Shown: piece by piece, positions 9,011 through 61,783 of the stretch
How the letters are laid out: each line of letters starts with the position of its first letter
How positions within the stretch are numbered: position 1 is the stretch's first letter
The notes under the pieces: generated by a model
The model's database searches: none
Told to the model about the DNA's origin: nothing
The model's input: only the letters and a program-made list of their open reading frames with translations
NCBI GenBank assembly: GCA_964348455.1
Contig: CAYGCQ010000001.1
Coordinates: 58,450-122,449, forward strand
Length of the DNA: 64,000 bases
DNA from: an uncultured Pseudomonadales bacterium
GTDB lineage: Bacteria; Patescibacteriota; Microgenomatia; UBA1400; MFAQ01
Direction of reading: 5' to 3'
Made by a program: the position numbers and the translations under genes

Positions 9011-9016
9011 AAACCC

Positions 9017-9691: not shown

Positions 9692-9723
9692 GAGTTTTAG
9701 AGTTTTTGAGTTTTAGAGTTTTT
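9692..9723. repeat. direct tandem repeat (gagttttagagttttt) x2 at the 3' end of the minus-strand gene
   Basis: Two adjacent 16-nt units. A related motif ttttagagttttagattttttgagttttt occurs at 61747-61779. Confidence 0.8.
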
Positions 9724-11826: not shown

Positions 11827-11829
11827 CAA

Positions 11830-13868: not shown

Positions 13869-13875
13869 TATTCTT

Positions 13876-13901
13876 GTCATTCCGGGCTTGACCCGGAATC
13901 C
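13876..13901 (+). repeat. hairpin repeat, type B (GTCATTCCGGGCTTGACCCGGAATCC), 10 nt upstream of ATG 13912
   Basis: Stem CCGGG/CCCGG, loop cttga. Intergenic between orn and a GT2 gene. Confidence 0.9.
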
Positions 13902-13911
13902 AGAAACTCAA

Positions 13912-38314: not shown

Positions 38315-39580
38315 TTGGTATACTCAACTTACATGAAACTGGCCAAAAATTTATGGATTGCGCTGATTATCGCCGTTATTCTTAGATTGTTTGTGATGGG
38401 CATCTCATACCATCCAGACCTTTCAGGTCAGTTGCTTTCGGGCTACTTCTTCGCTTTTGAGGGGGTGACAAATGTTTACGACCACCTGGCTAACCTCTCA
38501 TCGGACCATGCTTTGGTAAAAAACTTTGGAGTAGGGGACATCTTTATATATCCACCTCTAACGTACTTTACCATCGGTTCATTTATAAAACTCTCTAGCG
38601 TTATCGTTCCGGAAAAATTCTTTTTGGATATCATGAACGGCTTATCAATATATCAACCCGGACTCAGCTGGAATCTCATCATTCTTAAGTTTCCTTATCT
38701 TTTGGTAGATATCTGTATGGCTTTTGCTTTAGCGTCTCTGTTTGATAAAGAAAAGCAGAAAAAATGGGCCTTTTTACTCTGGCTTTTTAATCCTGTCACC
38801 TTTTACGCGACATTTTCCATGGGAGTATTTGATATTATTCCTGCCATTTTTACAGTTCTGTCACTGTATTTTGCCAAGCAAAAGAAGCTTCCCCTAGCCG
38901 CTGTGATGCTTTCAATCGGCGCTGCATATAAGCAATATCCCATCTTTTTACTTCCATATATCGTTTTCTCCGCTAAAAATTTCAGAGAAGGGATAAAGAT
39001 AGTTCTTTGCGGACTCCTCCCTTACCTTCTAACTATAGCTCCATTTCTTAATTCTTCTGCCTTCAAATATATGGTCTTTGGAGCCAAGTCTCAGAAAGAG
39101 TTTTATATGCAGTGGATGGTCTCGGGCTCAGAAGGAATCTTCCCATATCTCCTCGGAGTGGTTGTGCTCTACCTTCATGCTTTCAGAAATAAATATCTGG
39201 TTCCAAGACTGTGGAAATATTATCTGGGAATTTTTCTACTACTTTTTTCCGTCACTCATTATCACCCTCAATGGTTTATTTGGATCGCCCCCTTCCTGGT
39301 TATTGAGCTAGTCAGTACAGATTTCTACAATCTTTGGCTAGATCTTACTCTTTTTGCCTGCTACGTATTCATTGTTCTGACTTTCGACAACTCGCTTTCT
39401 GTGGGAATGTTCTCGGTACTCAATCAAAATCTAAATAAGTTCCAAGGGATAGATAAATTAATTTCCGCTAAGACAGATATCTTTGCACTCAAGAGTTACG
39501 TCAGGACTCTTTTTGCAGGAGTCAGTCTGTTCTTGGTCTTTGATTTGCTAAAGTCAGGTAAAAAGCCAAAAGAGGCATGA
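38315..39580 (+). CDS. hypothetical polytopic membrane protein (possible GT-C/DUF2029-like)
   Basis: 421 aa with at least 10 TM helices. Weak resemblance only. Confidence 0.45.
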   Translation: MVYSTYMKLAKNLWIALIIAVILRLFVMGISYHPDLSGQLLSGYFFAFEGVTNVYDHLANLSSDHALVKNFGVGDIFIYPPLTYFTIGSFIKLSSVIVPEKFFLDIMNGLSIYQPGLSWNLIILKFPYLLVDICMAFALASLFDKEKQKKWAFLLWLFNPVTFYATFSMGVFDIIPAIFTVLSLYFAKQKKLPLAAVMLSIGAAYKQYPIFLLPYIVFSAKNFREGIKIVLCGLLPYLLTIAPFLNSSAFKYMVFGAKSQKEFYMQWMVSGSEGIFPYLLGVVVLYLHAFRNKYLVPRLWKYYLGIFLLLFSVTHYHPQWFIWIAPFLVIELVSTDFYNLWLDLTLFACYVFIVLTFDNSLSVGMFSVLNQNLNKFQGIDKLISAKTDIFALKSYVRTLFAGVSLFLVFDLLKSGKKPKEA

Positions 39581-40332
39581 TCCCTCAACTTTTCCTGTCA
39601 TTTGTATTTTCTTTGATATTCTTTGCCAGAGAAAAATCAGGCTGGTTTGGTATTCTATATCTCGCATTTCTTCCATTTATTATTTTCTCCGGCTTAGAAC
39701 CACTCCTCTTATTTATCTCACTATTACTCGGGTATCTCCTCTTTTGTCTTTTCCGAAAACCAACCGCTTCTAACTTCGTAATCTTTATAATTGTTGTTAT
39801 TACTTCTCTTGCTATAGTCCAGCCAAGGAGTGGAATTGATCTGGGCATGCTCAATGCAATCAATTCTCAAAGAGGGGAGCACTCCGATTTTGAAAACTCA
39901 CTATTGCCAAAGCTACTTCACAACAAATCAGACCTTTTCCAATCTTTTATAAACAATTTTGACAAGCTTTTGTCTCCAGTTGCCATTTTTGCTTCCGGAT
40001 TTTGGCACAATATCAGTCCTTATTATCCTCTTGGATTCTTGTTTCCTTGGGATCTATTTTTTATCTATTACTTCTTCAAGAATCAATCGACTTCTTGGAC
40101 TCGAAAATCTTACTGGTTTTTTGCAGTAGCCTTGATTCTACTTATCCTGCTTACGGGATTTGTCTACCTTGACCAGGCAGAGGTTTACTGTTTCGCTGTC
40201 GTTTATTTCTTGGCTATTTTGGCTTTCCTTGGATATTCGCAGTCATCCATAAAGACCAGATATATTTTCCTACTCATCAACTCAATTTACTTGGTCTACC
40301 ATCTGGTCGTCACTAGTTACTTTCCCATATGA
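39577..40332 (+). CDS. hypothetical polytopic membrane protein
   Basis: 251 aa with about 7 TM helices. Overlapping start and stop with its neighbours. Confidence 0.45.
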   Translation: MIPQLFLSFVFSLIFFAREKSGWFGILYLAFLPFIIFSGLEPLLLFISLLLGYLLFCLFRKPTASNFVIFIIVVITSLAIVQPRSGIDLGMLNAINSQRGEHSDFENSLLPKLLHNKSDLFQSFINNFDKLLSPVAIFASGFWHNISPYYPLGFLFPWDLFFIYYFFKNQSTSWTRKSYWFFAVALILLILLTGFVYLDQAEVYCFAVVYFLAILAFLGYSQSSIKTRYIFLLINSIYLVYHLVVTSYFPI

Positions 40333-42062
40333 CAAAGTCGAATTTTAATCATAAATATGTCATTCCCGACCTGATCGGGAATCCATCCCCTGTTAAATTT
40401 ATGTTTTGGATCATAATTTTATTTGTCATATTTTTTACCAGATTCTACAAACTAGATTCTATCCCTCCATCTTTAACCATCGATGAAGTTTCCATAGGTT
40501 ACAACGCATTCTCAATACTCAAAACCGGCCGAGATGAGTGGGGAAATCTTTTACCTATTTCGTTTAGATCTGTGGGGGACTTCAAAGCGCCTACTCTAAT
40601 CTATCTCACGGTTCCCTTTATCAGGATTTTTGGGCTAAATGAATTTGGTGTCAGACTTCCAGTTGCCATCTTTTCTGCCCTAAATATCCTTTTGTTTTGG
40701 ATACTGGTTAAACTTTTTGTATTTAATAGGAAATTTATTTGGTCACCATACATAGCCACTCTAATCTTCTCGCTTTCGCCTTGGCTAATTCCATTCTCAC
40801 GTTCCGGCTTCGAAGCTGTTATTGCATTAACCTTTTTACTCACCAATCTAATTTTTGCTTTCAAGTTTAAGCAGTCAGGCAGCTTGCAACATTTCTTTTT
40901 TATGTTCTTATTTGCATTTCTTTCCGCCATCACATATCACTCGACCAAAATAGTTGTTCCCTTGATTAATCTATTCTTTATTGGTTTTGAATTTAGTTAT
41001 TTTAGATCTCGTCTCAAAGCCTGGTCAAGAGAAAACAAAACAGCTTTAATTTTTACATCCACAGTATTCTTATTGCTCATGGCTTTCTTCGTTGGGAATT
41101 TTATTCTTGGACCAGGATCCTCGCGGGCAAGTATGACGATGCTTTCGAAAGATTTTGATTTTTCCAGAGGCTTGCTTCCTCAGTTCCAACAGCATCCCTT
41201 CTCTGGACTTACTTCCTCAATTGGCTTGTTTTCACTTTGGTTTAAACGCTTGTTGGAATATTTTTCTCCAAATTTCTATCTTACGTCTGGACTTGGACTA
41301 GTTACACCAGGTCAGCCGGGTCAGGGTGTAATTTACTCCATCGAGTTTCCATTTTTAATTCTCGGGTTTTTGCTCTTAATTTTTAAGTCCAATATTTTGA
41401 ACACACTACTTGCTTCGACACTGGCTACAAAACTTCTGATTGTTTGGCTATTTATTTCTTTACTCCCAGCTTCTGTTACCAACAACAGTCAGCATGCTTT
41501 AAGAACTTTAAACATCGTACCGGTTATTACCATTCTTATCGTCGTTGGTTTTGAGTATACTTACTCGTTTCTCAAGAAGAATTTCTTGAGATATCTTTTC
41601 TTTACGCTGGTTCTTATTGGCTATATGTATGGACTACTAAGATTTACTGACTACTATAGCCTCCACTATCCGGTAGAGCTTTCAGAAACTCGTTCATACG
41701 GTTGGAAACAAATGGCAATATTTGCTAGAGGTCACCACACTGAATACGACTCTGTGTACGTAGACCCTAGGTTTGGTACTCAGGGTCCGTACACTTATGG
41801 TGTGCCATATCTCTATTTTCTCTTTTATTCTAAATACGATCCAAAAACCTATATTGACGATCCAAGAAGAAATTCTGGAACAGATTTTGAAAATTATATT
41901 TTCGAACCAATTGAGCGAATGTATGTAGATCAAGAAAAAAATAATTTATACATAGCCAGCCCTTGGACTTTTCCGAGCGAGCTAATATCCTCAAAAAATC
42001 AGAAGTATTACGTGCCTTTTCTCAACAACTCCTCTGGTTTATACGCCATTTCCGACAGGTAG
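40329..42062 (+). CDS. ArnT/PMT-family membrane glycosyltransferase (tandem paralog 1 of 6)
   Basis: TIDEVSIGYNAFSILKTGRDEWGNLLPISFRSVGDFKAP...GVRLPVAIFSALN. A canonical repeat at 40359-40390 lies in the N-terminal extension, and an alternative ATG at 40401 follows it. Confidence 0.7.
   Translation: MTKSNFNHKYVIPDLIGNPSPVKFMFWIIILFVIFFTRFYKLDSIPPSLTIDEVSIGYNAFSILKTGRDEWGNLLPISFRSVGDFKAPTLIYLTVPFIRIFGLNEFGVRLPVAIFSALNILLFWILVKLFVFNRKFIWSPYIATLIFSLSPWLIPFSRSGFEAVIALTFLLTNLIFAFKFKQSGSLQHFFFMFLFAFLSAITYHSTKIVVPLINLFFIGFEFSYFRSRLKAWSRENKTALIFTSTVFLLLMAFFVGNFILGPGSSRASMTMLSKDFDFSRGLLPQFQQHPFSGLTSSIGLFSLWFKRLLEYFSPNFYLTSGLGLVTPGQPGQGVIYSIEFPFLILGFLLLIFKSNILNTLLASTLATKLLIVWLFISLLPASVTNNSQHALRTLNIVPVITILIVVGFEYTYSFLKKNFLRYLFFTLVLIGYMYGLLRFTDYYSLHYPVELSETRSYGWKQMAIFARGHHTEYDSVYVDPRFGTQGPYTYGVPYLYFLFYSKYDPKTYIDDPRRNSGTDFENYIFEPIERMYVDQEKNNLYIASPWTFPSELISSKNQKYYVPFLNNSSGLYAISDR
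40359..40390 (+). repeat. canonical hairpin repeat (GTCATTCCCGACCTGATCGGGAATCCATCCCC)
   Basis: Lies between the ORF-track start 40329 and the alternative start 40401. Confidence 0.9.
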
Positions 42063-42083
42063 CGCATATAATTACTAAGCAAC

Positions 42084-42920
42084 ATGAAAAAACTAATATT
42101 TTTTGTCTCGGCAGTTTTGATGTTGGCTTTCTGGCCTCTCTCTTTCCTATTTGCCAATCAGGACTCCTGGGTACCCTTTTTCGTAGCTCTCACAATACTT
42201 CTGGTAGATTGGCTTCTTTATCTAAATAAGTTTAAATACCACTACTTCCTATATCTCCTCTTCCCTCTCATCCATCCTGCGTTGCTCCTCTTCCCAATTA
42301 TTTCACTTATTTTTATTGTTATTTCGACCGAGGGTAAGCCCAGGTGGAGAAATCTCACACTAGCAATATTCACCTCGCTCCTAATTATTGTCTCTTTTTT
42401 TTCCTACAAAACCTTCTATGCTTACTCCATCTTCACTCCAGATCCACTAGCTTTTGATACCCTAAACAAAAAGATTTCTCTAATCCCAAATCGCAATCTA
42501 GCCAAAGTTTTCATGAACAAAACTACAATTTTTCAGGATAAATTTAAATCCAATATTTTTATCTCTTTAGACCCAAACAACTACTTTTTTGGACTTCACC
42601 CACAAGAGTTGGGAAACAACCAGAACTTAACAAAATTTCCATATCTAGCCATTTTTCCCTTTCTGATAGGTTTGTACTATTTATTGGACAGTAAGTCCAA
42701 GCATTGGATAATATCTATCTTTGTTGCCATAGCATCTTCCATCGCCTTTATAAACAATCAGGATCGATTCGACATCCTACTTTACTTACCCATAGTCCTC
42801 ATTTGTCTTAATGGGCTGAAAAAGATCTTCGATTCATCATCTTTTAATTTCTCCATTTTTTCTGCCTTTTTCATCCCCATTTCAATTATCGAACTAGCTA
42901 GGCTAATTATATTTAGATAA
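42084..42920 (+). CDS. hypothetical polytopic membrane protein
   Basis: 278 aa with about 8 TM helices, interleaved between PMT paralogs. Confidence 0.45.
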   Translation: MKKLIFFVSAVLMLAFWPLSFLFANQDSWVPFFVALTILLVDWLLYLNKFKYHYFLYLLFPLIHPALLLFPIISLIFIVISTEGKPRWRNLTLAIFTSLLIIVSFFSYKTFYAYSIFTPDPLAFDTLNKKISLIPNRNLAKVFMNKTTIFQDKFKSNIFISLDPNNYFFGLHPQELGNNQNLTKFPYLAIFPFLIGLYYLLDSKSKHWIISIFVAIASSIAFINNQDRFDILLYLPIVLICLNGLKKIFDSSSFNFSIFSAFFIPISIIELARLIIFR

Positions 42921-44624
42921 ATGAAAAAATTAAGCAAACATCTCCCGCTTTTTCTTTTATTCATTGCTATCATCGTTGGGGCATTCTTCCGATTTTACAA
43001 AATCGGAGACTCTCCAAAAGGTGTTTATGTGGACGAAGCCGCCCTTGGTTACAATGCCTACTCGATTTTGAAAACAGGTAAGGACGAGTTTGGAAAAGCA
43101 TTTCCCATAATGTTTAGATCCTTCGCCACTTTCCAAAGTCCTGTATATACCTATCTCACAGTGCCCTTTATTTCCATGTTTGGATTATCCTCATTTTCCA
43201 CTCGCTTGCCTTCGGCATTATTCGGGTTGCTCACCATCCCCCTCCTATATTTTCTTGTTAAGCAGTTATCAGGTACAGATCCAGTCACCAAGAACCAAGT
43301 TCCTCGCACCAATCACTTCGCACTATTTTCTGCCCTCCTCCTCGCCATTTCTCCTTGGCACATTCAGTATAGTCGGACAGCATACGAATCAAACATTGCG
43401 CTCTTTTTCTTACTTCTGGGATCACTGCTGTTTATCAAAGCTTTGAAAAAACCTTGGCTTTTTACTCTCTCTGCTCTTTCATTTGGAATTTCTTTTATAG
43501 CCTACAGAGCCGAGATTCTGATTGTGCCAGTGTTACTCGCGGTATTTACCGTTCGATTTGGTAAGGTAATAATTACAAACCTAAAATCTTTCCTATTTCC
43601 AATCTTCATTGGAAGTATTCTTGGACTCGTGGTAATTGCTCCCACAGTTCTGATATTGCGCACCCCAGGATTCCAAGCAAGGACTTCAGCAATGAATATT
43701 TTTTCACTGTCCCTTCAGGCTCCCTGGGGTTATAAAGAGGGTGGTGGACCCCTTGAAAAATTAACGAACAATCCCCAGCTACTTTCAGGCAAAGAGTTTC
43801 TTTCACTTTACTCTTCTTATCTTTCACCTAGATACATGTTCTCTCTGGGAGACTCTGGTCCTAGAAAGCCGTATACAGACCTTGGCACTTTTTACGCATG
43901 GCAATTCCCTTTCTTTTTGGTTGGCCTTTATTTATTACTCAAGTCCAAAGATCAGAATGGTCTAAAAACTTTTATTCTTACATTGCTTTTGGTTTCTCCT
44001 ATTCCGGCGGCTCTTACCCGAGATCCTTACTCCACTCTCAGATCACTACCACTGGTAGTGCCCATAATCCTAATCATTTCGTACGGACTGGTGAAAATCT
44101 TCGAGATAAATTGGCGGTACGCAAATAGATGGAAGTACACCGCTCTCACAATTTTGATACTCCTATCTTCGTTAAAGATGTTTATATCTGCTTTCTATCA
44201 TCACGATTATTTCAGATCTGTTTTTTGGAACTACGGTTGGCAAAATGTAGTCGAGAGCTTTCAGGACTTGGATCCTACGTTGCCAATCATCGTGGACAAT
44301 TCCCGTGGAGATTCCTACATTGAGCTATTGTTCTTTTTAAAATACTATCCGGCTACATATCAGCAAGATAACCTAGAAGTGCCTCTTTCGGAGTACTATA
44401 CCAATATGACGCGCAACACCACAAAACACTTGGGAAAAATTACGGTTAAGGGCTTTCAATGGGGTGTTGATACTGACAATGTCGAACAGTATATTGTGGC
44501 TGATAGCATTGCTATCTCAGACCCACAAGTGGAGTATCACGGCCTAACAGTAGTTTCAGAGACTCGACTGCCCAACAACGGAGGCTCATTGCGCATACTA
44601 AAAACAAACCCTAAATCAAAATGA
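42921..44624 (+). CDS. ArnT/PMT-family membrane glycosyltransferase (tandem paralog 2)
   Basis: VDEAALGYNAYSILKTGKDEFGKAFPIMFRSFATFQSPVYTYL...STRLPSALFGLL. Confidence 0.7.
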   Translation: MKKLSKHLPLFLLFIAIIVGAFFRFYKIGDSPKGVYVDEAALGYNAYSILKTGKDEFGKAFPIMFRSFATFQSPVYTYLTVPFISMFGLSSFSTRLPSALFGLLTIPLLYFLVKQLSGTDPVTKNQVPRTNHFALFSALLLAISPWHIQYSRTAYESNIALFFLLLGSLLFIKALKKPWLFTLSALSFGISFIAYRAEILIVPVLLAVFTVRFGKVIITNLKSFLFPIFIGSILGLVVIAPTVLILRTPGFQARTSAMNIFSLSLQAPWGYKEGGGPLEKLTNNPQLLSGKEFLSLYSSYLSPRYMFSLGDSGPRKPYTDLGTFYAWQFPFFLVGLYLLLKSKDQNGLKTFILTLLLVSPIPAALTRDPYSTLRSLPLVVPIILIISYGLVKIFEINWRYANRWKYTALTILILLSSLKMFISAFYHHDYFRSVFWNYGWQNVVESFQDLDPTLPIIVDNSRGDSYIELLFFLKYYPATYQQDNLEVPLSEYYTNMTRNTTKHLGKITVKGFQWGVDTDNVEQYIVADSIAISDPQVEYHGLTVVSETRLPNNGGSLRILKTNPKSK

Positions 44625-46318
44625 AAATAAAAAATTTCATTCTCAACTACTGGCCCTTAATATTAGCTCTTTTCGTCGCAGGTATCATAAGGCTTTACGG
44701 CCTACTTCAAAATCCAATCAGTCTATATTCAGATGAGGTAGATATCGGTTATCAGGTACATACTTTGCTCACTACAGGCAGAGATTATCAAGGTAATTTC
44801 TTACCTTTACAGTTTCATTCATTTTCTGATGTTCGCACACCTCTCCCGATATACTTCACTGCTTTAGTTAATCTTATTGGTGTTCCATTAGATCTCGCTA
44901 TTCGTCTTACTCCGGCAATTTTTGGAATTCTGGGCATTTTGGCCACTTATCTTTTTTTAGAGAATCTATCAAAAAAAGAAATATTCGACCTGAAAGTATC
45001 CCATCTCGGATTAATTGGTTCAGCTATTCTAGCTTTAATCCCTTGGCACGTAACTTTTTCCAGAATAGGATTCGAACTATCCATGCTATATTTCTTTGCT
45101 ATTTTTGGCTTCTACCTATACACAGAATACTTGATAATGAAAAAAAATAAATTTCTTTATCTTTCTACACTTTTTCTTGGTCTCACTCCTATGGTGTATA
45201 GCACTGCCAAGCTGGCGGTGCTCGCATACCCAATTCTGCTATTGATGTTATCTGGTGATACCAAGGTCTTCAAATCTCTGAAACAGATTTTGACAGCTTT
45301 AGTGATTTTATTTCTACCCCTTGTCCTTTTACTACTCAGTGGGGGAGCTGCTTCTAGATTCCAATATATTTCCATCTTCACAAACCCAACGACGGTTCCG
45401 GAAATAAATCTTGAAAGACAGTCGGATTTTGGTCCCGTCTCTGCTGTGGGTTCCAGTCCCTCAATATTTACAAAAATATTTCACAATAAGCCTCTCTGGT
45501 ACTCTAACGATCTCACAAATAACTTGTTTGATTTAATCTCTACGCAATTTTTATTTACACAAGGCGACCCAAACCTTCGTCATTCACCAGAAAACTGGGG
45601 TGTATTGTATCGCGCAATATTCCCACTATTAGTGATTGGGGTGTATTTCCTCATTAGGTATCAAAAAAGCAGATTAGTGTTATTCTTGGGATCTTTTTTG
45701 ATTGTCGCCATGTCCGCATCAGTGATTACCAGAGGAGGTGGAACACATGCAAGTCGATCATATATGATGATCTTGCCTTTTGTGGTTGTTAGCGGAATTG
45801 GCTTAGCTTATTTAAGCTCCTTCAAAAAAATATTATTTTATCTATTTTCTTTAGCTGTTGTGTTTGAATCGATATTTTTTCTTCATAGCTACTGGACACA
45901 TTATCGATACGATTCTGCGGGTTTTTGGAGCTATGGCATGAAGCAAGCAATCATTTCTTCTGAGAAATACCCCGGACAGCCAATTGTGATTTCTCCGAAA
46001 AATGAAAACCCCTTGATTTTTTATCTGTACTACACAAGATTTGACCCTAGTAGATTTCAAAAATTTGTTCAAGACAATACCGTATACATCAATATGTCTG
46101 GCGAGCACAATCTTGAGGGTAACAGGATTGGAGACAGCAATCTCTATATTGCCACACTCAGCGACATGAACAATAAATCAGAAAACCTACTGCCTGAAGC
46201 AGTCTATTATTTTGCAAAACTCGAGACCATTAATAGTCAAGTCCGAACAGTAGGAACAAACAGTGACATAATTACATCACCTTCCGGTGAACCAATATTT
46301 TATGAAATCCATTTTTAA
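44621..46318 (+). CDS. ArnT/PMT-family membrane glycosyltransferase (tandem paralog 3)
   Basis: SDEVDIGYQVHTLLTTGRDYQGNFLPLQFHSFSDVRTP...AIRLTPAIFGIL. Confidence 0.7.
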   Translation: MKIKNFILNYWPLILALFVAGIIRLYGLLQNPISLYSDEVDIGYQVHTLLTTGRDYQGNFLPLQFHSFSDVRTPLPIYFTALVNLIGVPLDLAIRLTPAIFGILGILATYLFLENLSKKEIFDLKVSHLGLIGSAILALIPWHVTFSRIGFELSMLYFFAIFGFYLYTEYLIMKKNKFLYLSTLFLGLTPMVYSTAKLAVLAYPILLLMLSGDTKVFKSLKQILTALVILFLPLVLLLLSGGAASRFQYISIFTNPTTVPEINLERQSDFGPVSAVGSSPSIFTKIFHNKPLWYSNDLTNNLFDLISTQFLFTQGDPNLRHSPENWGVLYRAIFPLLVIGVYFLIRYQKSRLVLFLGSFLIVAMSASVITRGGGTHASRSYMMILPFVVVSGIGLAYLSSFKKILFYLFSLAVVFESIFFLHSYWTHYRYDSAGFWSYGMKQAIISSEKYPGQPIVISPKNENPLIFYLYYTRFDPSRFQKFVQDNTVYINMSGEHNLEGNRIGDSNLYIATLSDMNNKSENLLPEAVYYFAKLETINSQVRTVGTNSDIITSPSGEPIFYEIHF

Positions 46319-48245
46319 AAGCAAAACTTTTATTTTTCTACTTCTAACCACCTTATTGGGTGGTGTTCTCAGATTTTGGAAATTGGCCGACTTCCCTGTA
46401 GCACCCAACTGGGATGAGGTGAGTCATGGAGTTAATGCCTACTCGATACTCTTGACCGGAAAAGATGAATGGGGAATTTCATTCCCTCATATTTTTCGAG
46501 CATTTGGTGACTACAAACTTCCTTTGTATATTTATCTCTCTACTATCCCAGTTTGGCTTTTTGGATTAAACGTATTTGCTGTGAGATTCATTTCTGCCTT
46601 AGCCGGAACTCTCGCCATCCCCGGAATTTACTTACTAACACGAGAACCCTTCACAAATAAAGACACATCAAAGGACTCACCTGTCATTCCCGACCAGATC
46701 GGGAATCTATATAAAGACCTTCCGCTCCTCTCTGCCCTCCTTCTTGCCATCTCTCCATGGCACTTCTTCATTTCTCGTCCCGCTCTGGAAGCCAATCTAT
46801 CACTTACCCTAATAATTTTCGGCTTTTATTTCTTATTACGATTTTTGAAGCAAAATCAACCTGTCATCCCGACCGCAGTGGAGGGATCTCAAACCACAAA
46901 AAAATCTTTATCTCGAAAGATTTCTCTTCTCCCCGCGGTCCTACTTCTTGGTCTTTCCCTCCACACTTACAACACCGCCCGCGTCTTCGTCCCATTAATG
47001 GTTATCACAACACTTTTAATCTATAAAGAAAAATTTCTATCTAACATTCGTCATTCCGGGCTTGACCCGGAATCCATCCGGAAACAAAAAAATTTAAATA
47101 GATTCCTAATCAGGGTCTCCCAGTCGCTACGATCGGGAATGACAAGTAATATTTTTGCACTGCTCCTGGTAGTTATTTTCTCCGGCCTCGTCATCTTTCA
47201 AGTCTTCGTTGGAGAGGGCACAGCCCGCTACGAAAAATTAAAGATTTTATCGCCAGCTGCCGTTTTTCAAATAGGGGAAAGTCGAGCTAATAGCCAGCTA
47301 GCACCTCTATTTGCCAAGCTGATTCATAATCGACCTGTTTTCTTTGTTGGCACCGCACTCAGAAATTACATAGGGTATTTCACTCCCGATTTTTTCTCTC
47401 AGAAATGGGGAGCCCAGTTCCAGTTTGCAATTCCGGATCAGAACCTTTTGACTCTTCCTGTATTCCTCTTGGCCTTTCTCGGCTTCTTCTCTTTCCTTAG
47501 ACGAATCAACCCCCTTACGAATCATAAAATCATAAGTCATTCCCGACCTGATCGGGAATCTATACAAATGAATTCCATCAAATCCTTTCAGTTTCTTTAT
47601 TCCTGGCTCTTACTATCCCCGATAGCAGCGTCTCTCACTATAGATCCACCACAAGCCCTTCGCCCAAATCCCATGATCCCAGCCCTGATCATTTTTGCTG
47701 CACTGGGTTTTTACCGGCTTTTAAGTCTCGTTGGGTCCAAATGGAAAACAACAATCTCTGTCCTTCTTGCCTTGTGGATATCTATTTCTTTCGGTTTTTA
47801 TCTCAAGAATTACTTCGGTGATTATTCTCAAAAGTATTCTTCTTCATGGCAACATAGCTACGCTGAAGTAATGGATTACGTTAAAGATCACCAATCTGAA
47901 TACGACAAAATTTTTATAACCAAGCGCTTAGGCGAACCTCACATTTTCTATGCTTTTTACACCAAGTTAAATCCGGAACTGCTTCAGCTAGGGGGTGACA
48001 ATATCCGTTTTGAGAAGTCTGACTGGTTCTGGACAGATAAGATAGATAACATCTATTTTGTAAACGATTGGCAAATCCCAACTACCGGTATAAAAACTCT
48101 GCCATTAGAAAGTGGCGGTCAAATTCCCACCCAGAGAAGTCTCCTTATAACTTCTCCGGAACATGTACCGGTCAACGCTCATGTCATAAAAACAGTCAAT
48201 TTCTTAGATGGTACTCCAGCGTTTATAATTACTTCTGTCCCATGA
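46287..48245 (+). CDS. ArnT/PMT-family membrane glycosyltransferase (tandem paralog 4) carrying five in-frame hairpin repeats
   Basis: WDEVSHGVNAYSILLTGKDEWGISFPHIFRAFGDYKLP...AVRFISALAGTL. 652 aa versus ~565 for the siblings. The excess is accounted for by repeats at 46683, 46863, 47050, 47101 (inverted) and 47536. Confidence 0.65.
   Translation: MNQYFMKSIFKSKTFIFLLLTTLLGGVLRFWKLADFPVAPNWDEVSHGVNAYSILLTGKDEWGISFPHIFRAFGDYKLPLYIYLSTIPVWLFGLNVFAVRFISALAGTLAIPGIYLLTREPFTNKDTSKDSPVIPDQIGNLYKDLPLLSALLLAISPWHFFISRPALEANLSLTLIIFGFYFLLRFLKQNQPVIPTAVEGSQTTKKSLSRKISLLPAVLLLGLSLHTYNTARVFVPLMVITTLLIYKEKFLSNIRHSGLDPESIRKQKNLNRFLIRVSQSLRSGMTSNIFALLLVVIFSGLVIFQVFVGEGTARYEKLKILSPAAVFQIGESRANSQLAPLFAKLIHNRPVFFVGTALRNYIGYFTPDFFSQKWGAQFQFAIPDQNLLTLPVFLLAFLGFFSFLRRINPLTNHKIISHSRPDRESIQMNSIKSFQFLYSWLLLSPIAASLTIDPPQALRPNPMIPALIIFAALGFYRLLSLVGSKWKTTISVLLALWISISFGFYLKNYFGDYSQKYSSSWQHSYAEVMDYVKDHQSEYDKIFITKRLGEPHIFYAFYTKLNPELLQLGGDNIRFEKSDWFWTDKIDNIYFVNDWQIPTTGIKTLPLESGGQIPTQRSLLITSPEHVPVNAHVIKTVNFLDGTPAFIITSVP
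46683..46715 (+). repeat. canonical repeat variant (loop ccaga), in-frame (VIPDQIGNLYKD)
   Basis: gtcattcccgaccagatcgggaatctatataaa. Confidence 0.9.
46863..46892 (+). repeat. short degenerate variant GTCATCCCGACCGCAGTGGAGGGATCTCA, in-frame
   Basis: Resembles the 5' part of 61321-61371. Confidence 0.6.
47050..47080 (+). repeat. type B repeat GTCATTCCGGGCTTGACCCGGAATCCATCCGG, in-frame (RHSGLDPESI)
   Basis: Read in frame b. Confidence 0.9.
47101..47143 (-). repeat. inverted-orientation copy of the long GATC-stem variant (gattcctaatcagggtctcccagtcgctacgatcgggaatgac), still in-frame
   Basis: Reverse complement is gtcattcccgatcgtagcgactgggagaccctgattaggaatc. One of only three minus-orientation copies in the window. 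Confidence 0.85.
47536..47570 (+). repeat. canonical 29-mer plus CAAATG tail inside CDS, frame b (SHSRPDRESIQMN)
   Basis: Identical to the promoter-proximal copies at 11798 and 1358. Followed by an in-frame ATG. Confidence 0.9.
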
Positions 48246-49966
48246 AGAAATACACCATACTGATTGTTGCTCTGGTTCTAGGTACATTCCTTCGGCTGTG
48301 GCAGTTGTCTGCAGTTCCAAATGGATTGACCTGGGACGAAGCAGCTATTGGCTACAATGCTTTTTCGATTCTAAAGACCGGTCGAGATGAGCATGGCGCA
48401 TTCTTACCACTTATCTTCAAAAGTTTTGGGGATTACAAGCCAGGCGCATATATTTACCTCACTGTTCCCTCAGTCGCTATATTTGGCTTGAATGAATTCG
48501 CTGTGCGCTTTCCATCTGCTCTTGCCGGCATTCTGGGCATATTGGGCATTTACCTTCTCACCAATGAAATATTCTCAAATAAGTCTAAATCAAAATCAAA
48601 ATCAAAAAACAATGTCATTCCCGACCTGATCGGGAATCTATATAAATCAAATTCAACTTTTAATTTAGGGTCTTTCGCCGCTCTTGCCTTCGCCATTTCT
48701 CCCTGGTCTGTTCACTTTAGCCATGGATCTTGGGAGGTGAATGTTTTCTCCACTTTGACAATTTTTGCACTCTACTACTTCTTGAGATTTATAAAAAATA
48801 AATCATCTCTATACCCATCACTTCTTTTGGCTTGTTTGTCACTGGCCATGTATCAAGCTGCCAAGCTTCTTACACCTCTAGTATTCCTTCTATTTGTCAT
48901 AATTTACTGGAAAGAATTTTGGTTGGAATTTAAGAAATATCTCAATCCAAGAAAACTGTTATTAGTATTACCCTTTGTACTATTTGGCTTATTTATCTTT
49001 TTTGGATCTATCTTTGGTAGTGCTGGTAATAGACTTAGTACTCTTAGTATCTTTAACTACAAGCCAAATCTCGCAGAAAAAGCACTGCCAATAGACGGGC
49101 CAAATTCATTTGCTACTCCCATATTTCATAATCAGACCCAGTTGTCCACCTCACTAGTGATCTCCCGCTACATCTATCATTTTTCTCCGGAAGTCCTACT
49201 TTATGAGGGTCCGATAATCTCTGAAAGGGGACACATCCCTGGCCTTGGAGTTTTGAACCCTCTCGAATTTATTTGGCTTGTGTTTGGATTCATCTGGCTC
49301 GCTCGTCAAATTTTTCCAGGCAGTCATGACTCACCAAGTAAGCCCACTCTTTTAATCCTTGGACTATTGTTTATCGCCCCGATACCCGCTTCGCTGACTT
49401 TGGCCGAATTTTCAACCGTTCGCGCGCTATTTATGTTAGTTCCACTTGCCATAATTTCCGGTATTGGTATGGCCTATTCGATTCAGCAATTAAAATACTT
49501 TGCAGTTCCCATAGTTATCTTGTATGGTTTGGTCACCGTTTACACTTTTGATGTCTACTTTTTTCACAGCCAAACAGCTTTTGCAAAAGAATTTAATTAT
49601 GGATACAAACAAGTAGTTGGATTAATCAAAGAAAATCCAACCAAAAGAGTTGTGTTTACTGATGTCTTCGGTCAGCCATATATTTATTATCTCTTTTATA
49701 CCGCTTACGATCCCGATACATATCAAAAAAACAATGGCTTTATAGACGGAGGACTTGATGTGGGAAAAGTTGATAAAGTCGCCAACGTAGAGTTCCATCA
49801 ATTTAATTCCGATGACATGAATACTGGTAAGGACACTCTCTTTATCGGGAGTGAGGGTAATATCAATAACCAGTTCGACATAGCCGGGTCAAACGTGTCT
49901 CTTTTTCGCCAATTTGAAACTCCTGATCTAAAAATCTTATTTAGAGTCATTAAAACTAAACAATGA
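48242..49966 (+). CDS. ArnT/PMT-family membrane glycosyltransferase (tandem paralog 5)
   Basis: TWDEAAIGYNAFSILKTGRDEHGAFLPLIFKSFGDYKPG...AVRFPSALAGIL. The start MKKYTILIVAL overlaps the upstream stop. Carries a KSKSKSKSK low-complexity run and a repeat at 48614. Confidence 0.7.
   Translation: MKKYTILIVALVLGTFLRLWQLSAVPNGLTWDEAAIGYNAFSILKTGRDEHGAFLPLIFKSFGDYKPGAYIYLTVPSVAIFGLNEFAVRFPSALAGILGILGIYLLTNEIFSNKSKSKSKSKNNVIPDLIGNLYKSNSTFNLGSFAALAFAISPWSVHFSHGSWEVNVFSTLTIFALYYFLRFIKNKSSLYPSLLLACLSLAMYQAAKLLTPLVFLLFVIIYWKEFWLEFKKYLNPRKLLLVLPFVLFGLFIFFGSIFGSAGNRLSTLSIFNYKPNLAEKALPIDGPNSFATPIFHNQTQLSTSLVISRYIYHFSPEVLLYEGPIISERGHIPGLGVLNPLEFIWLVFGFIWLARQIFPGSHDSPSKPTLLILGLLFIAPIPASLTLAEFSTVRALFMLVPLAIISGIGMAYSIQQLKYFAVPIVILYGLVTVYTFDVYFFHSQTAFAKEFNYGYKQVVGLIKENPTKRVVFTDVFGQPYIYYLFYTAYDPDTYQKNNGFIDGGLDVGKVDKVANVEFHQFNSDDMNTGKDTLFIGSEGNINNQFDIAGSNVSLFRQFETPDLKILFRVIKTKQ
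48614..48645 (+). repeat. canonical repeat, in-frame (VIPDLIGNLYKS)
   Basis: gtcattcccgacctgatcgggaatctatataaa. Confidence 0.9.
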
Positions 49967-51813
49967 AATCAACTGTCATTCCGGGCTTGACCCGGAATCT
50001 ATACAAATTTATTCCTATTATTCTTGTCTTGCTATTAGCTGCCTTTCTAAGATTAATCTCTCTGGACAAATTTCCGGCTGGTTTAAACGCAGATGAAGCC
50101 GCGATTGGGTACAACGCTTGGTCTTTGATCCAGACAGGTAAAGATGAACATTCTATGTCTTGGCCATTAGTATTTAGATCTTTCGATGACTACAAGCCTC
50201 CAGTTTATTTTTATCTTGTCCTCCCATTCGTAAAATTTTTAGGACTGAATGTCTGGTCTGTCCGTCTTCCCTCAGCACTAGACGGTATTGCCTCTGTCTA
50301 CCTCCTTTACTTAGTTGTCATTCTTTTATTCAAAAAAACAAATTCCACTAACAATCATGTCATCCTCGCGAAGGCGGGGATCCATCCGGATCACAATTCT
50401 TCTGATTTAGAATGTGACACAAAGACATATCGATTTGCCCTCCTCTCCGCCCTCCTTCTCGCTATTTCTCCTTGGCATCTTCAGTTCTCTCGGGGAGGAT
50501 GGGAGGTAAACGCAGCACTCTTTTTTATCCTTTTGGGGATTTGGTCTTTCTTCAAGGGCTTGGAAAAGCCAAAATATTTTTATCTCTTTGTCATTTCTAT
50601 GGCCGTCAGCCTCTACACATATCACTCCGCCCGCATCATCTCTCCCTTACTTGCCCTCACTCTCGTCATCCTCTTCTGGAAACAACTCTTCCCAATATCA
50701 TTACCCAAAGTCCATCGTGTCATTCCCGACCTGATCGGGAATCTATATAAATCTACCGCTTCAAAAACCTGTCTCATCGCCTGTCTTCTCGGCCTCCTCC
50801 TCTCCCTCCCTCTCGCCGGCCAGCTTCTATCCAAAGAAGGTCAATCGCGTTTTTCAGGAGTTTCTGTTTTTTCAGATACCGGTCCACTCTGGCAAGCACT
50901 GGAACAGCGTAGAGCTCACACCCCTGAAACTATTTTTATCAAATCTATTCACAACCAATATCTTTCCTACGGACTAAGATTTGTCAAAAATTATTTATCT
51001 CACTTTTCACCACGCTTTCTATTTGTTACCGGAGACGAGATTGCTCGTAGTAAAGTGCCTGGTATGGGGCAGACTTATTTGTTCTTGATACCATTTTATT
51101 TTCTAGGACTTTACTCCTTACTGAAACTAGATTCGAAGGGTAAAAAACTTATTTTTATTTGGTTCTTGATAGCGCCATTGGCTGCTGCTCTAACTTTTCA
51201 GTCACCTCATGCCCTACGCTCTCAGAACATGGTAGTGCCTCTATCGGTAATCTCTGCGCTTGGACTTTCAGTATTTATAAACCTGCTTCTAAGAGTAAAT
51301 AAGAAATGGCTCACTATTACGATTTCAACTTTACTATTTCTTTCTGGCACCTACTCCGTCGCTCGGTATCTACATCTATACTATGTTCATTACCCCAAAG
51401 AGCTCCCCTTTGCTTGGCAATTCGGTTTTGATCAAGTCGCTGCTTATACCAACGACAACTATGATAATTATGACCGTATCTTAATTTCCGATCGTTATGA
51501 TCAGCCCTACATACTTATGGCCTTTTTCCTAAAATATCCACCTGAAGTGCTCCAAAAAGAACTTGTCATGACCCCTCGCGATAAGTTTGGTTTCTCCACG
51601 GTCAGAAAGTTCGGAAAGTTTGAATTCCGATCAATTGACTATGGTCAAGATAAGTTGCTTCCAAATACCCTTATAATGGCCGCAGACGAGGCCGTCGATG
51701 ATGAAGCCGTAATCCATATTATCAACGACCCCGCCGGAATCCCAATGTACAAATTCATCTCGACAGAACCTGTTTTAAAAATTGATCTACCTATCACTGC
51801 CAAAGAAAAATAA
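49963..51813 (+). CDS. ArnT/PMT-family membrane glycosyltransferase (tandem paralog 6) carrying three in-frame repeats
   Basis: NADEAAIGYNAWSLIQTGKDEHSMSWPLVFRSFDDYKPP...SVRLPSALDGIA. Repeats at 49975 (N-terminus, MKSTVIPGLTRNLYKF), 50359 (VILAKAGIHP) and 50719 (VIPDLIGNLYKS). Confidence 0.7.
   Translation: MKSTVIPGLTRNLYKFIPIILVLLLAAFLRLISLDKFPAGLNADEAAIGYNAWSLIQTGKDEHSMSWPLVFRSFDDYKPPVYFYLVLPFVKFLGLNVWSVRLPSALDGIASVYLLYLVVILLFKKTNSTNNHVILAKAGIHPDHNSSDLECDTKTYRFALLSALLLAISPWHLQFSRGGWEVNAALFFILLGIWSFFKGLEKPKYFYLFVISMAVSLYTYHSARIISPLLALTLVILFWKQLFPISLPKVHRVIPDLIGNLYKSTASKTCLIACLLGLLLSLPLAGQLLSKEGQSRFSGVSVFSDTGPLWQALEQRRAHTPETIFIKSIHNQYLSYGLRFVKNYLSHFSPRFLFVTGDEIARSKVPGMGQTYLFLIPFYFLGLYSLLKLDSKGKKLIFIWFLIAPLAAALTFQSPHALRSQNMVVPLSVISALGLSVFINLLLRVNKKWLTITISTLLFLSGTYSVARYLHLYYVHYPKELPFAWQFGFDQVAAYTNDNYDNYDRILISDRYDQPYILMAFFLKYPPEVLQKELVMTPRDKFGFSTVRKFGKFEFRSIDYGQDKLLPNTLIMAADEAVDDEAVIHIINDPAGIPMYKFISTEPVLKIDLPITAKEK
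49975..50006 (+). repeat. type B repeat 12 nt after the annotated ATG, in-frame
   Basis: gtcattccgggcttgacccggaatctatacaaa. Confidence 0.9.
50359..50389 (+). repeat. type E repeat GTCATCCTCGCGAAGGCGGGGATCCATCCGG, in-frame
   Basis: T-G wobble position conserved. Confidence 0.9.
50719..50750 (+). repeat. canonical repeat, in-frame (VIPDLIGNLYKS)
   Basis: Exact 29-mer plus TATAAA. Confidence 0.9.
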
Positions 51814-51815
51814 AC

Positions 51816-52088
51816 GTCATTCCTGCGCAGGAATGACGCTGGTACCCGAAGGGGGAAATCCATCAAATCAATTTCATCCCCTTTCGTCATTGCGAGTTTC
51901 GTAACCGATCCCAGAGTCGCCTCAGGAGACACCGAAGCAATCTCACTCCACCCTTGTCATTCTGAACTTGATTCAGAATCCATCCCCTCATCTCACACAA
52001 ACAATCTCACTCCACACACCACACCACACGTCATGGGGTTAATCCGCCGTGGCGGAAGTTTTGGTATTCCGAACCGAAGCAATCTATA
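51816..52088 (+). repeat. intergenic array of 4 hairpin-repeat variants with CA-rich spacers
   Basis: Starts with the perfect 22-nt palindrome GTCATTCCTGCGCAGGAATGAC (51816-51837), extended by gctggtacccgaagggggaaatcca. Type D long unit at 51886-51946. GTCATTCTGAACTTGATTCAGAATCCATCCC at 51956-51986. A GTCATGGGGTTAATCCGCCGTGGCGGAAG... unit ending AAGCAATCTATAAT at about 52029-52088. Confidence 0.9.
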
Positions 52089-52101
52089 ATATAAATATTC
52101 A

Positions 52102-52983
52102 ATGAAAGCCACTCGTCAAACAATCTCCGTCACTATGGCCTCGTACAACAACGAGGATAGTATTGCCGACACTCTCAATTCCGTCAAAGGCTGGGTTGAT
52201 GAGATCATCGTAGTCGATGGCACCTCTTCCGACAAGACTGCAGAGATTGCCAAGAAAATGGGAGCCAGGGTCATGATAAGAGAGAACAACCCTATCTTCC
52301 ACATTCAAAAGAGAATAGCAAATGATGCTGCCAAATCGGACTGGATTCTTCAACTCGACACAGACGAAGTGGTAACTCCTGAAATGAAAAAAGAAATTAT
52401 TGGTATCCTGGAAGGCCGATACTTCGGTTATAACTGGTGGATCTCACCTCTTAAACTTTCGTTAAATAAAATTTATAAAATCTTCCCCGAACCAAAACTT
52501 TTGCATTCACCTGCATCAGCCTACTGGTTACCACGCAAAAATTATTTTCTCAAAGGCACTCTGATGCACTCCGGCCAATATCCAGATCCGGTAATTAGAT
52601 TATTTCAAAAAGGAAAGGCCGAGCTGCCGGGCAAAGATGTCCACGAACAAATGGTAGTTAAAGGCGTTACTGGCTGGTTGAGGTCAAATCTCGATCACTT
52701 TGGAACCCCAAACTTTTCCAGATACCTTATCAGAGAAGATCGCTACTCAAGTTTGAACGCCCATCAGCTGAAAGAAAAAGGTCTAAAAATAAACATCTTG
52801 AATACGATAAATTATTTATTCTTCAAGCCTCTTGGAACTTTTTGCAGTCTATACTTCCGTTACCGGGGTTTCTTGGATGGCTTTCCTGGTTTTGTTTTTG
52901 CTCTCTACTCCGGACTTCATCACGCTTTCTCATACATGAAACTCTGGGAATTATATAAAGACATTGACTATGGAACCCATTAA
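52102..52983 (+). CDS. GT2 glycosyltransferase
   Basis: ISVTMASYNNEDSI, IIVVDGTSSDKT and ILQLDTDEVVTPEM motifs. Paralogous to 23005 and 25222. Confidence 0.7.
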   Translation: MKATRQTISVTMASYNNEDSIADTLNSVKGWVDEIIVVDGTSSDKTAEIAKKMGARVMIRENNPIFHIQKRIANDAAKSDWILQLDTDEVVTPEMKKEIIGILEGRYFGYNWWISPLKLSLNKIYKIFPEPKLLHSPASAYWLPRKNYFLKGTLMHSGQYPDPVIRLFQKGKAELPGKDVHEQMVVKGVTGWLRSNLDHFGTPNFSRYLIREDRYSSLNAHQLKEKGLKINILNTINYLFFKPLGTFCSLYFRYRGFLDGFPGFVFALYSGLHHAFSYMKLWELYKDIDYGTH

Positions 52984-53986
52984 AGTATTTATTAACAGCG
53001 GTGGCCACTCTGCCGGAAGAGGAGTCGGGGTCTATGCCGACAATCTCTCCAAGTCACTAACTAAGTTTCCGGAAATTATATTAACGGATAAAAATCCGGA
53101 CATTATTCACTACCCATTCTTTGATCTTTTTTATCCTACTCTCAAAATAAAAAAAGAAAAACCAACTGTAGTAACCATTCACGATCTTACACCTCTGGTA
53201 ATGTCGGATAGATATCCAAGAGGCGTCATGGGTACCATTAATCTGCTTAGGCAGTGGTATTCACTTCGCTCTGTCGCTGCCATTATCACCGATTCAAATA
53301 ATTCGAAGCAGGATATCGAGAAATATTTTAGAATTTCCCCGGAAAAAATATTCGTCACCCCTCTTGCAGTAGGGGATAGTTACAAGGTTAAACCAAGCCC
53401 TGCCAAGATTGCCGAGGTGAAAAAGAAATACAACTTGCCGAACAAATTTGTCTTCACCATTTCTTCTGGTCCGAACCCAAACAAGAATCTACCATCACTG
53501 GCTGAGGTAACTGATCGACTAGGTGTCCCCCTCGTAATTGTTGGAAAAAACATGATTCAGGAAATAGTAAAGCCTGTTCACCCAGAGCTAATCGACCTCG
53601 TAAGGCTTCAGGTGTATAACCACATTAATATTCTAGGAGCCATTCCAAACGAAGACGTAAACGCCATATTCCACCTCGCCTCTCTTTACGTTCAACCATC
53701 TTACTACGAAGGGTTTGGCTTACCACTACTGGAAGCCATGACAAAAGGCTGTTTAATAGCTTCTTCAAACACTTCCAGCTCTCCTGAGATCTATCATGAG
53801 GGGGCCATCACCTTCAATCCCCGAAAATTAAAATCCATGGAGAAAGCGATTCAAAAAGCACTCAGTCTTTCGCCAAAACAAAAAGCCCACCAAATTGAAA
53901 TGGCAAGAGAGCGCTCCAGAGACTTTACCTGGGCCAAAACCGCCAAACAAACTCTCGAAGTCTACAAAAAGGTAGGCTCTCTATAA
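52964..53986 (+). CDS. GT4 (GT-B fold) glycosyltransferase
   Basis: YYEGFGLPLLEAMTKGCLIASSNTSSSPEI donor-binding motif. Confidence 0.7.
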   Translation: MTMEPIKVFINSGGHSAGRGVGVYADNLSKSLTKFPEIILTDKNPDIIHYPFFDLFYPTLKIKKEKPTVVTIHDLTPLVMSDRYPRGVMGTINLLRQWYSLRSVAAIITDSNNSKQDIEKYFRISPEKIFVTPLAVGDSYKVKPSPAKIAEVKKKYNLPNKFVFTISSGPNPNKNLPSLAEVTDRLGVPLVIVGKNMIQEIVKPVHPELIDLVRLQVYNHINILGAIPNEDVNAIFHLASLYVQPSYYEGFGLPLLEAMTKGCLIASSNTSSSPEIYHEGAITFNPRKLKSMEKAIQKALSLSPKQKAHQIEMARERSRDFTWAKTAKQTLEVYKKVGSL

Positions 53987-61736: not shown

Positions 61737-61783
61737 ATTTATTCCAATTTTAGAGTTTTAGATTTTTTGAGTTTTTCAGCTAG

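Follow-up and report, generated by a model that had tools for sequence, protein, structure and literature searches.

Six anciently diverged ArnT-like GT-C proteins form a conserved array in a Collierbacteria glycosylation island and probably act in envelope glycosylation

We analysed a 64,000-nucleotide (nt) window of DNA (contig CAYGCQ010000001.1, positions 58,450 to 122,449) whose source genome belongs to Candidatus Collierbacteria (Microgenomates, candidate phyla radiation (CPR)), and in particular an array of six plus-strand open reading frames (ORFs), at window positions 40329-51813, that encode polytopic proteins of the GT-C type. Numbered 5' to 3', these are gene 1 (40329-42062; 577 amino acids (aa)), gene 2 (42921-44624; 567 aa), gene 3 (44621-46318; 565 aa), gene 4 (46287-48245; 652 aa), gene 5 (48242-49966; 574 aa counted from its ATG, the mechanical ORF beginning upstream at TTG 48068), and gene 6 (49963-51813; 616 aa). 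An earlier note on this DNA (the original prediction) had described six tandem genes of 565-650 aa; the six co-directional ORFs are present at exactly the coordinates it gave, and their lengths range from 565 to 652 aa, a spread that is largely the product of hairpin-repeat insertions. They are neighbouring but not strictly tandem, as a 278-aa ORF (42084-42920, plus strand) splits genes 1 and 2. Stops and starts overlap by 4 nt in the ATGA manner at 40329, 44621, 48242, and 49963, and genes 3 and 4 would overlap by 32 nt if gene 4 began at GTG 46287; judged against its ortholog, the true start of gene 4 is probably ATG 46302. A seventh, 485-aa member of the family is encoded outside the array (28923-30380, plus strand). 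We consider it probable that the six are functionally distinct, anciently diverged ArnT-like GT-C enzymes that together make up a multi-component line for extracytoplasmic glycosylation of an envelope acceptor.

The six array proteins are clearly homologous to one another, and five of them match Pfam PMT_2 (PF13231; gathering cut-off 26.1 bits), generally weakly and in three cases above the cut-off (gene 2, 34.1 bits; gene 5, 28.8; gene 6, 31.4). A family hidden Markov model (HMM), whose alignment had included window genes, gives 478 bits to gene 1 and 325 bits to the member at 28923, which also matches PMT_2 at 59.4 bits. Pfam PMT (PF02366; cut-off 22.7 bits) matches gene 2 alone and under the cut-off (20.1 bits), and no MIR domain was found in the array proteins with Pfam. 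The AlphaFold2 model of gene 2, for which 33 homologs were used (predicted local distance difference test 87.7; predicted template-modelling score 0.90), begins with a first transmembrane (TM) helix, TM1 (residues 2-25), continues with a 65-residue loop holding helices 37-52 and 74-87 and a beta-hairpin, then passes through about 10 further membrane helices with a long loop at 246-325, and ends in an alpha/beta domain at ∼440-567. Each array protein follows this plan, with ∼11 TM helices, a long first extracytoplasmic loop bearing an Asp-Glu (DE) pair, and a C-terminal extracytoplasmic alpha/beta domain. When the model was compared with the PDB by Foldseek, ArnT (5EZM/5F15) ranked first (E 1e-7; template-modelling (TM) score 0.51-0.53), followed by AglB, STT3, PglB, Pmt4, AftA, Pmt1-Pmt2, and AftB; every match with E<0.02 is a GT-C-fold protein. 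Likewise, a profile of the N-terminal 250 residues found a single match among PDB sequences, the ArnT of C. metallidurans (E 6.8e-4). The predicted membership in GT-C is thus borne out by fold and by PMT_2 matches, and we conclude that the array proteins belong to the GT-C superfamily, fold class GT-C_A, with ArnT as the nearest solved relative, and that they are orthologs of neither ArnT nor PMT. Public annotation already labels these proteins 'glycosyltransferase family 39' or 'ArnT-like'.

The shared first-loop signature is real. In a seven-way alignment of genes 1-6 and the 28923 gene, which carries it as DE...GYNA...TGRDE, the residues D, E, G, T, G, D, and P of the loop are invariant, and the consensus reads DEAAIGYNA.SILKTGRDE.G...P..FRSF.D.K.P; the form common to the six array genes is DE...GY.A...TG.D...F.SF.D[FY]K.P. 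Across alignments of 33 and 27 sequences, D38, E39, G53, D55, Y78, R95, P145, and Y195 (gene 2 numbering) are invariant. The pair falls at residues 52-53 of gene 1, and the DNA that encodes the motif was also detected as a five-copy repeat (D17). In two respects the motif is looser than the original prediction had it. The residue that precedes DE, given there as D/T, is I, V, S, W, W, and A in the array genes, and uniformity across all six holds for DE and the other invariant residues but not for the rest of the loop: gene 3 has the most divergent version (GYQV, GRDYQG, FHSFSDVR), a deviation kept within its orthogroup, and gene 2 departs at D[FY]K.

In the gene 2 model, D38/E39 open the first extracytoplasmic helix (37-52), directly after TM1, and the family Lys of D[FY]K.P directly precedes the second loop helix (74-87). 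The active-site pair of known enzymes lies in the same TM1-TM2 loop (D55/E56 in ArnT, D77/E78 in Pmt1), and ArnT touches the lipid phosphate through K85, a residue at the N-terminus of its second loop helix (PMC7801869). Counting from DE as 0/1, the family has TG at +14/15 and its Lys at +34, and E. coli ArnT has SG at +14/15 and the Lys of YFEKP at +30. In the HMMER alignment of the N-terminal region, D[FY]K.P lands on ArnT YFEKPP, Lys on Lys, and FGL..F.VRLPSA lands on FGLGEWQARLAVA of ArnT, with FGL..F.VR on FGLGEWQAR. ArnT requires two motifs of its first periplasmic loop, RYA and YFEKP (PMC5377068); their counterparts in the family, GY.A and D[FY]K.P, are collinear but altered, and the Lys is absent from gene 2. 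Because topology, motif spacing and collinearity, and a partial HMM alignment to ArnT all agree, the identification of this loop with the ArnT/PMT catalytic loop is supported: the modelled DE appears to sit where the catalytic Asp-Glu does, short of residue-by-residue proof, and the family Lys would occupy the place equivalent to ArnT K85.

Several results weigh against the proposed reading. The local alignments between the N-terminal profile and ArnT begin after the DE pair, and comparison of the family with the single E. coli ArnT sequence by hhalign reached a probability of 13% and served for motif collinearity only. Genes 3 and 4 score below the PMT_2 cut-off (22.2 and 21.9 bits, respectively), gene 1 has no Pfam match of any kind, and in NCBIfam the array proteins match only Agl23 and ArnT models, far under their cut-offs (the curated ArnT model NF009784 matches gene 4 alone, at 17.3 bits vs a cut-off of 567). 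The full-length family profile finds nothing among PDB sequences at E<=1. Within the loop, gene 2 is missing both the D and the K of D[FY]K, its ortholog in the Collierbacteria locus L003 is also without this Lys, and the second acidic pair of gene 3 is altered or degenerate; taken together, the absent Lys of gene 2 and the altered pair of gene 3 mean that a chemistry shared across the six is not required. The proposal that the six act on one substrate comes from their conserved clustering. The weak Pfam scores, the lack of any for gene 1, and the failure of the full-length profile to match the PDB are also what one would expect if these were not glycosyltransferases but transporters or another kind of polytopic protein with a merely superficial likeness to PMT_2. 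However, this interpretation is scarcely credible and is contradicted by the fold comparison, in which high-confidence matches are to GT-C proteins only and transporters appear at E>0.03 with TM scores of ∼0.1, as well as by ArnT being the sole PDB match of the N-terminal profile and by an invariant acidic pair at the canonical position.

The number of paralogs had raised the possibility of recent tandem amplification for variable or strain-specific surface glycosylation, such as antigenic or phage-receptor variation. Consistent with this idea, tandem paralogs are many, loci hold from 1 to 8 family members across lineages, and some Collierbacteria (L010, L012, L023) have an extra gene-2-like copy. 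However, identity between paralogs within the array is only 22-32% by BLASTP, whereas each array gene shares 51-77% identity with the gene in the same position of L003 (gene 1, 64%, 560 aa; gene 4, 67.5%, 597 aa; gene 5, 73%, 563 aa; gene 6, 77%, 567 aa), and no long DNA repeats are shared between the genes save the stretch that encodes the motif. Gene 2, whose nearest named relatives are Candidatus Collierbacteria, is 61% identical to its orthologs in L003 and L004 and has orthologs at 45-68% in many metagenome-assembled genomes (MAGs); gene 1 has clear orthologs in eight Collierbacteria loci. In a neighbour-joining tree of 36 GT-C proteins from four genomes, genes 2-6 each cluster with their L003, L005, and L006 orthologs and gene 1 clusters with that of L003, so that the paralogs fall into separate orthogroups and represent ancient families. 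The same tree recovers the predicted second GT-C subfamily (the genes at 11830 and 27145 and a frameshifted gene) as a separate group, although the 27145 protein reads DQGRD and not DE. Because paralog identity is low and collinear orthologs at 51-77% exist elsewhere, the paralogs are not recent duplicates; recent tandem duplication is ruled out, the amplification explanation is very unlikely and largely refuted, and the variability suggested by the original prediction gives way to one-to-one orthologs in the same order in other genomes.

Conservation extends to the block as a whole. In L003 and L004 the same order is found, reading GT2, GT2, GT-C (minus strand), a GT87-like gene, and a 234-aa ORF, followed by ORFs of 560, 271, 565, 567, 597, 563, and 567 aa and then by GT2 and GT4. 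The window block is headed by a 421-aa polytopic protein of a different GT-C family (38315-39580, plus strand; GT87/PIG-U-like, with Pfam PIG-U 33 bits and GT87 29.7 bits), whose syntenic gene in L003 encodes 416 aa with a weak GT87 match, and it is closed by GT2 (293 aa) and GT4 (340 aa) genes after the array (52102-53986, plus strand; Pfam), a pair also present in L003/L004, the P0028 locus, L005, and L006. Gene order is partly kept in L005, L006, and the P0028 locus, and more distant genomes retain gene 4-gene 5-gene 6-GT2 as a unit. A survey with the family HMM covered 84 entries, namely the window and 83 related loci of ∼20 kb each from Collier-, Woese-, Curtiss-, Levy-, Gottesman-, and Chisholmbacteria and a few non-CPR MAGs; at least three family members occur in 64 of the 84 and at least five in 34. 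Arrays of 3-8 members are thus the rule across Microgenomates, and the array is a conserved, lineage-wide feature rather than a source of strain-level variation, with some lineages gaining or losing members.

The size differences among the array genes trace largely to a short repeat. The window contains 26 matches to GTCATTCY-N10-11-RGAATC, where chance would give 0.01; 24 of the copies are on the plus strand, and each forms a hairpin of ∼25 nt whose stem co-varies (CCCGAC/GTCGGG, CCGGGC/GCCCGG, CTGAAC/GTTCAG, and CCTGCG/CGCAGG types). Array genes carry eight in-frame copies, including one related GTCATCC variant: at the N-terminus of gene 1 (40359), in gene 4 (46683, 47050, 47536), in gene 5 (48614), and in gene 6 (49975, 50358, 50719). 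Three more in-frame copies lie in the 16191 and 27145 genes (16726, 27631, 27679). The in-frame copies encode VIPDLIGNLYK, RHSGLDPESI, or SHSRPDRESI-like peptides, and the L003 orthologs lack them, leaving alignment gaps of 10-19 aa (18 aa in gene 1). These insertions explain both the 565-652 aa spread and the truncation of the PMT_2 matches, which in genes 4-6 end near profile position 49-54, the site of a hairpin. When placed on the gene 2 model, all 11 fall at the N-terminus or in predicted cytoplasmic loops (residues 119-128, 175-179, ∼219, and 342-345) and none in a membrane helix, an extracytoplasmic loop, or the C-terminal domain. The insertions preserve the reading frame and are confined to loops, which speaks for functional genes under selection.

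The closest known analogy to these insertions is the palindromic elements of Rickettsia, which are longer than the window hairpins. Literature searches found no paper on loop-restricted in-frame repeat insertions of this kind; two reports mention Rickettsia palindromic elements inserting in frame into genes (PMC1779305, PMC10969869). Rfam, at gathering thresholds, gave no match anywhere in the window, so the hairpins correspond to no catalogued RNA family. In L003 these genes have no GTCATTCC hairpins but have another short repeat, ACCAATAACCAATAAC..., in the corresponding cytoplasmic loops (L003:10361-10434, 13765-14133, 15539-15581, 17224-17563); a form of it, ACCAATAACCAATAACTT..., translates as TNNHEPITNNF, and the TKNQVPRTNHF of gene 2 resembles a decayed copy. 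Intergenic hairpin copies are often found immediately ahead of a start codon, with TCTATAnAAAT after them, and the ATG of ORF 11830 is inside a hairpin unit. Intergenic arrays of several different hairpin units, all of which start with GTCAT (families D5, D8, D9, D13), occur at 5680-5915, 9013-9252, 11629-11840, 51816-52090 (directly 3' of gene 6), and 61337-61740. Two 100%-identical cassettes of ∼386 bp (5916-6301 and 9253-9638), each flanked by an inverted hairpin repeat, contain ORFs (5966-6253 and 9303-9590) for a 95-aa GIY-YIG nuclease (Pfam E 4e-15). By analogy with REP/RAYT systems, though with a GIY-YIG enzyme, these cassettes may be the source or mobiliser of the solo hairpins.

Two shorter polytopic proteins accompany the array. 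The 278-aa protein encoded directly 5' of gene 2 has no Pfam or NCBIfam match, but a similar ORF lies directly 5' of most gene-2 orthologs (27 distinct sequences), and two independent profiles, one from the loci and one from database homologs, match family positions ∼153/184-416, that is, TM4/5 through TM11, with probabilities of 94.9% and 95.2% (E 4.6e-8 and 2.8e-8, respectively). It thus looks like a shortened GT-C-fold protein; its first loop has five residues, hence there is no DE loop, and it lacks the C-terminal domain, and it has a strongly conserved extracytoplasmic motif, DPNNYFF.FHPRE..NQNL.KFP. The 251-aa protein encoded at 39577-40332 (plus strand), which overlaps gene 1 by 4 nt and is syntenic in L003/L004 and the P0028 locus, likewise has no match in Pfam or NCBIfam and is a possible shortened relative: a profile of eight Collierbacteria orthologs aligns by hhalign with family positions 261-363, the end of extracytoplasmic loop 4 plus TM8-9 (61%, E 8e-5). 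Our guess is that both are non-catalytic partners of the adjacent enzymes.

A broader version of this idea is that the whole array forms hetero-oligomeric complexes in which some full-length paralogs, together with the two shortened proteins, are non-catalytic scaffold or acceptor-binding subunits. The translational coupling by 4-nt overlaps, the strict adjoining of the 278-aa protein to gene-2 orthologs, the Pmt1-Pmt2 and EmbA-EmbB heteromers among the fold neighbours, and the degenerate second acidic pair of gene 3 would fit such complexes, and a review has speculated that a small GT-C enzyme may rely on another protein for acceptor binding (PMC8035078). However, DE and the other invariant loop residues are present in each of the six full-length proteins, so that none of the six looks dead, and we regard this explanation as quite improbable.

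The array is part of a larger glycosylation island. Window-wide domain searches found at least 17 GT-C-type genes, more than the total of about 14 first proposed; four had been absent from that count, three with PMT_2 (14660-16162, 16191-18008, and 55861-56994) and one with DUF2079 (56995-58428, minus strand), all by Pfam. The total takes in the genes at 11830, 27145, and 28923, the frameshifted gene, and the GT87/PIG-U-like gene at 38315-39580. The two predicted YfhO genes were confirmed, as was the broken second-subfamily GT-C gene at 36731-38273 (minus strand), which is split into ORFs of 195 and 292 aa near 37700 while its L003 ortholog is intact at 516 aa; it could be a true pseudogene or an assembly error. 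A hairpin repeat was considered as the cause and rejected, as this is a plain frameshift with no repeat there. The window also has dTDP-rhamnose genes at 57-2321 and about 14 GT2/GT4 genes.

Candidate lipid-phosphate-sugar synthases and flippases co-occur in the island with the GT-C genes, the synthase candidates being four GT2 genes that resemble ArnC, GtrB, or dolichyl-phosphate hexose synthases. A GT2 protein fused to GtrA/DPMS TM segments (7799-9010, plus strand; GT2 83 bits, GtrA_DPMS_TM 43.6 bits with a cut-off of 26.1) is a candidate donor synthase/flippase, and a 238-aa GT2 (10858-11574, plus strand) resembles ArnC, dolichyl-phosphate hexose transferase, and PpgS. Further candidates are an ArnC/GtrB/dolichyl-phosphate-hexose-synthase-like GT2 at 13888-14673 and a 312-aa Pfam GT2 with two TM segments at 58415-59353 (minus strand), a putative polyprenyl-phosphate sugar synthase that aligns over its full length with ArnC (7-295/316, 139 bits) and PgfS (3-289/308, 128 bits). 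Donor-synthase equivalog scores are all below cut-off, and these genes are candidates by homology. A Wzx-type (Polysacc_synt_3) flippase is encoded at 17986-19464 (plus strand; Pfam, 177 bits). No ArnA-, ArnB-, or ArnD-type domains were found among window ORFs of at least 120 aa, only ArnC-like GT2 genes.

Other ORFs of the island have no or almost no family assignment: a 523-aa soluble protein (53981-55552, minus strand), a 424-aa protein with ∼12 TM segments (59653-60927, plus strand), and a 371-aa membrane protein (9723-10838, minus strand) with a weak match to the 'AZOBR_p60025 cell surface glycopolymer formation' family. A 1171-aa ORF (19457-22972, plus strand) with ∼12 hydrophobic segments and no Pfam match is overlapped by an antisense ORF (20752-21210) and contains hairpin-repeat clusters at 20956-21133, 21711-21822, and 22366-22490; the repeats may have fused two or more genes in frame here. 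Between the GT2 genes at 23005-23922 and 24290-25219, a tandem 12-nt repeat, AGAAGCTGGAAC, is present in about six copies (24034-24105).

By analogy with ArnT, PMT, and Gram-positive GtlB/GacL-type enzymes, we infer how such an assembly might work. The ArnC/GtrB-like GT2 enzymes of the island would load a sugar onto polyprenyl monophosphate at the cytoplasmic face, and GtrA- or Wzx-type proteins would flip this donor across the membrane. Each GT-C would then move the sugar, with inversion, onto an acceptor at the outer face, its loop Asp activating or positioning the acceptor and conserved Lys/Arg residues holding the lipid phosphate. Since the six orthogroups stay together in a fixed order with translational coupling, they most likely handle different sugars or linkages of one glycoconjugate; each enzyme would add its particular sugar or linkage to one common envelope polymer, possible acceptors being a wall-linked (perhaps rhamnose-containing) polysaccharide, a lipoglycan, or surface proteins. 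A three-component scheme of this sort has been described, in which a GT-A enzyme loads undecaprenyl phosphate, a GtrA or Wzx protein acts as flippase, and a GT-C enzyme glycosylates a wall polymer outside; such systems include the PMT_2-type GtlB and the rhamnan-decorating GacL (PMC8035078).

The array can be compared with several known systems. Like ArnT, the lipid A 4-amino-4-deoxy-L-arabinose transferase (GT83), the array proteins are ∼550 aa in size, combine a GT-C_A membrane domain with a C-terminal extracytoplasmic domain, and have collinear DE, [ST]G.D, aromatic-(E)-K-P before the second loop helix, and FG..F.VR at the start of TM2. They differ in sharing 13% identity with it, in their GY.A/D[FY]K.P motif as opposed to RYA/YFEKP, in the ∼11 helices of the gene 2 model as compared to the 13 TM helices of ArnT, and in the absence of arnA, arnB, and arnD genes from the window. 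Patescibacteria are not known to possess lipid A, and the acceptor of the array must therefore differ from that of ArnT. With the Gram-positive multi-component systems (GtlB, YfhO, GacL, CsdB/D/F) and Gram-negative GtrC, the island shares the three component types, here by homology, and it has rhamnose-sugar genes nearby; however, those systems have one GT-C per modification and few per genome, whereas here six of one family stand in an operon-like array, and the island has seven of the array family, at least 17 GT-Cs of several families, and DE-less shortened proteins. The mycobacterial EmbA/B/C, AftA-D, and related sets offer a parallel: there, numerous GT-C paralogs draw on polyprenyl-phosphate sugars to assemble a single complex envelope glycan beyond the membrane. 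The fold neighbours include AftA, AftB, and EmbA; these belong to different GT-C families with much lower structural similarity (TM scores of 0.28-0.38), and no arabinofuranose-donor pathway was identified in the window.

The protein O-mannosyltransferases (GT39; Pmt1-Pmt2, Pmt4, and actinobacterial Pmt) deserve separate consideration, as the main rival explanation is that the six are PMT-like protein O-glycosyltransferases, each for different secreted or surface proteins (S-layer, pilins, lipoproteins) and not for a polysaccharide or lipoglycan. They too have DE in the first luminal/extracytoplasmic loop, at D77/E78 in Pmt1; Pmt4 and Pmt1-Pmt2 are fold neighbours; the array shows PMT_2 matches and a sub-threshold PMT match; and PMT paralogs cooperate as heterodimers. 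In addition, one donor-synthase candidate resembles PgfS, a component of a protein-glycosylation system. However, ArnT and not PMT is the best structural match and the sole PDB sequence match, the Pfam PMT score is under cut-off and confined to gene 2, there is no MIR domain, and with its Rml genes, Wzx, YfhO, and many GT2/GT4 genes the island resembles a polysaccharide locus. We consider the O-glycosyltransferase explanation rather unlikely.

The enzyme class and the general logic of the pathway are already known; what is new in detail is the size of the array and its deep conservation in very small genomes, the DE-less partners, and the loop-restricted repeats. Searches of the literature for arrays of GT-C, PMT, or glycosyltransferase genes in Microgenomates, Collierbacteria, or Patescibacteria turned up no relevant paper. 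Bacteria of the candidate phyla radiation are thought to live attached to other cells, and their envelopes are almost unknown. Their genomes are on the ∼1-Mb scale (1.09 Mb for a related Collierbacteria contig, 0.90 Mb for a Woesebacteria genome), and the ∼64 kb of densely packed glycosylation genes seen here would make up about 6% of one. The conservation of a six-gene array across Microgenomates suggests that selection maintains an elaborate envelope glycoconjugate built outside the membrane, and the six orthogroups, the invariant DE pair, and the conserved DE-less partner offer targets for its study. As a bolder and, in our estimate, unlikely proposal, Microgenomates may build a lineage-specific envelope glycopolymer with at least six ArnT-like GT-Cs complexed with the DE-less shortened partners. 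If true, a GT-C assembly line with pseudo-enzyme partners would be an architecture not described for GT-C enzymes, and it would explain why so large a share of these ∼1-Mb genomes is given to surface glycosylation, perhaps for host attachment.

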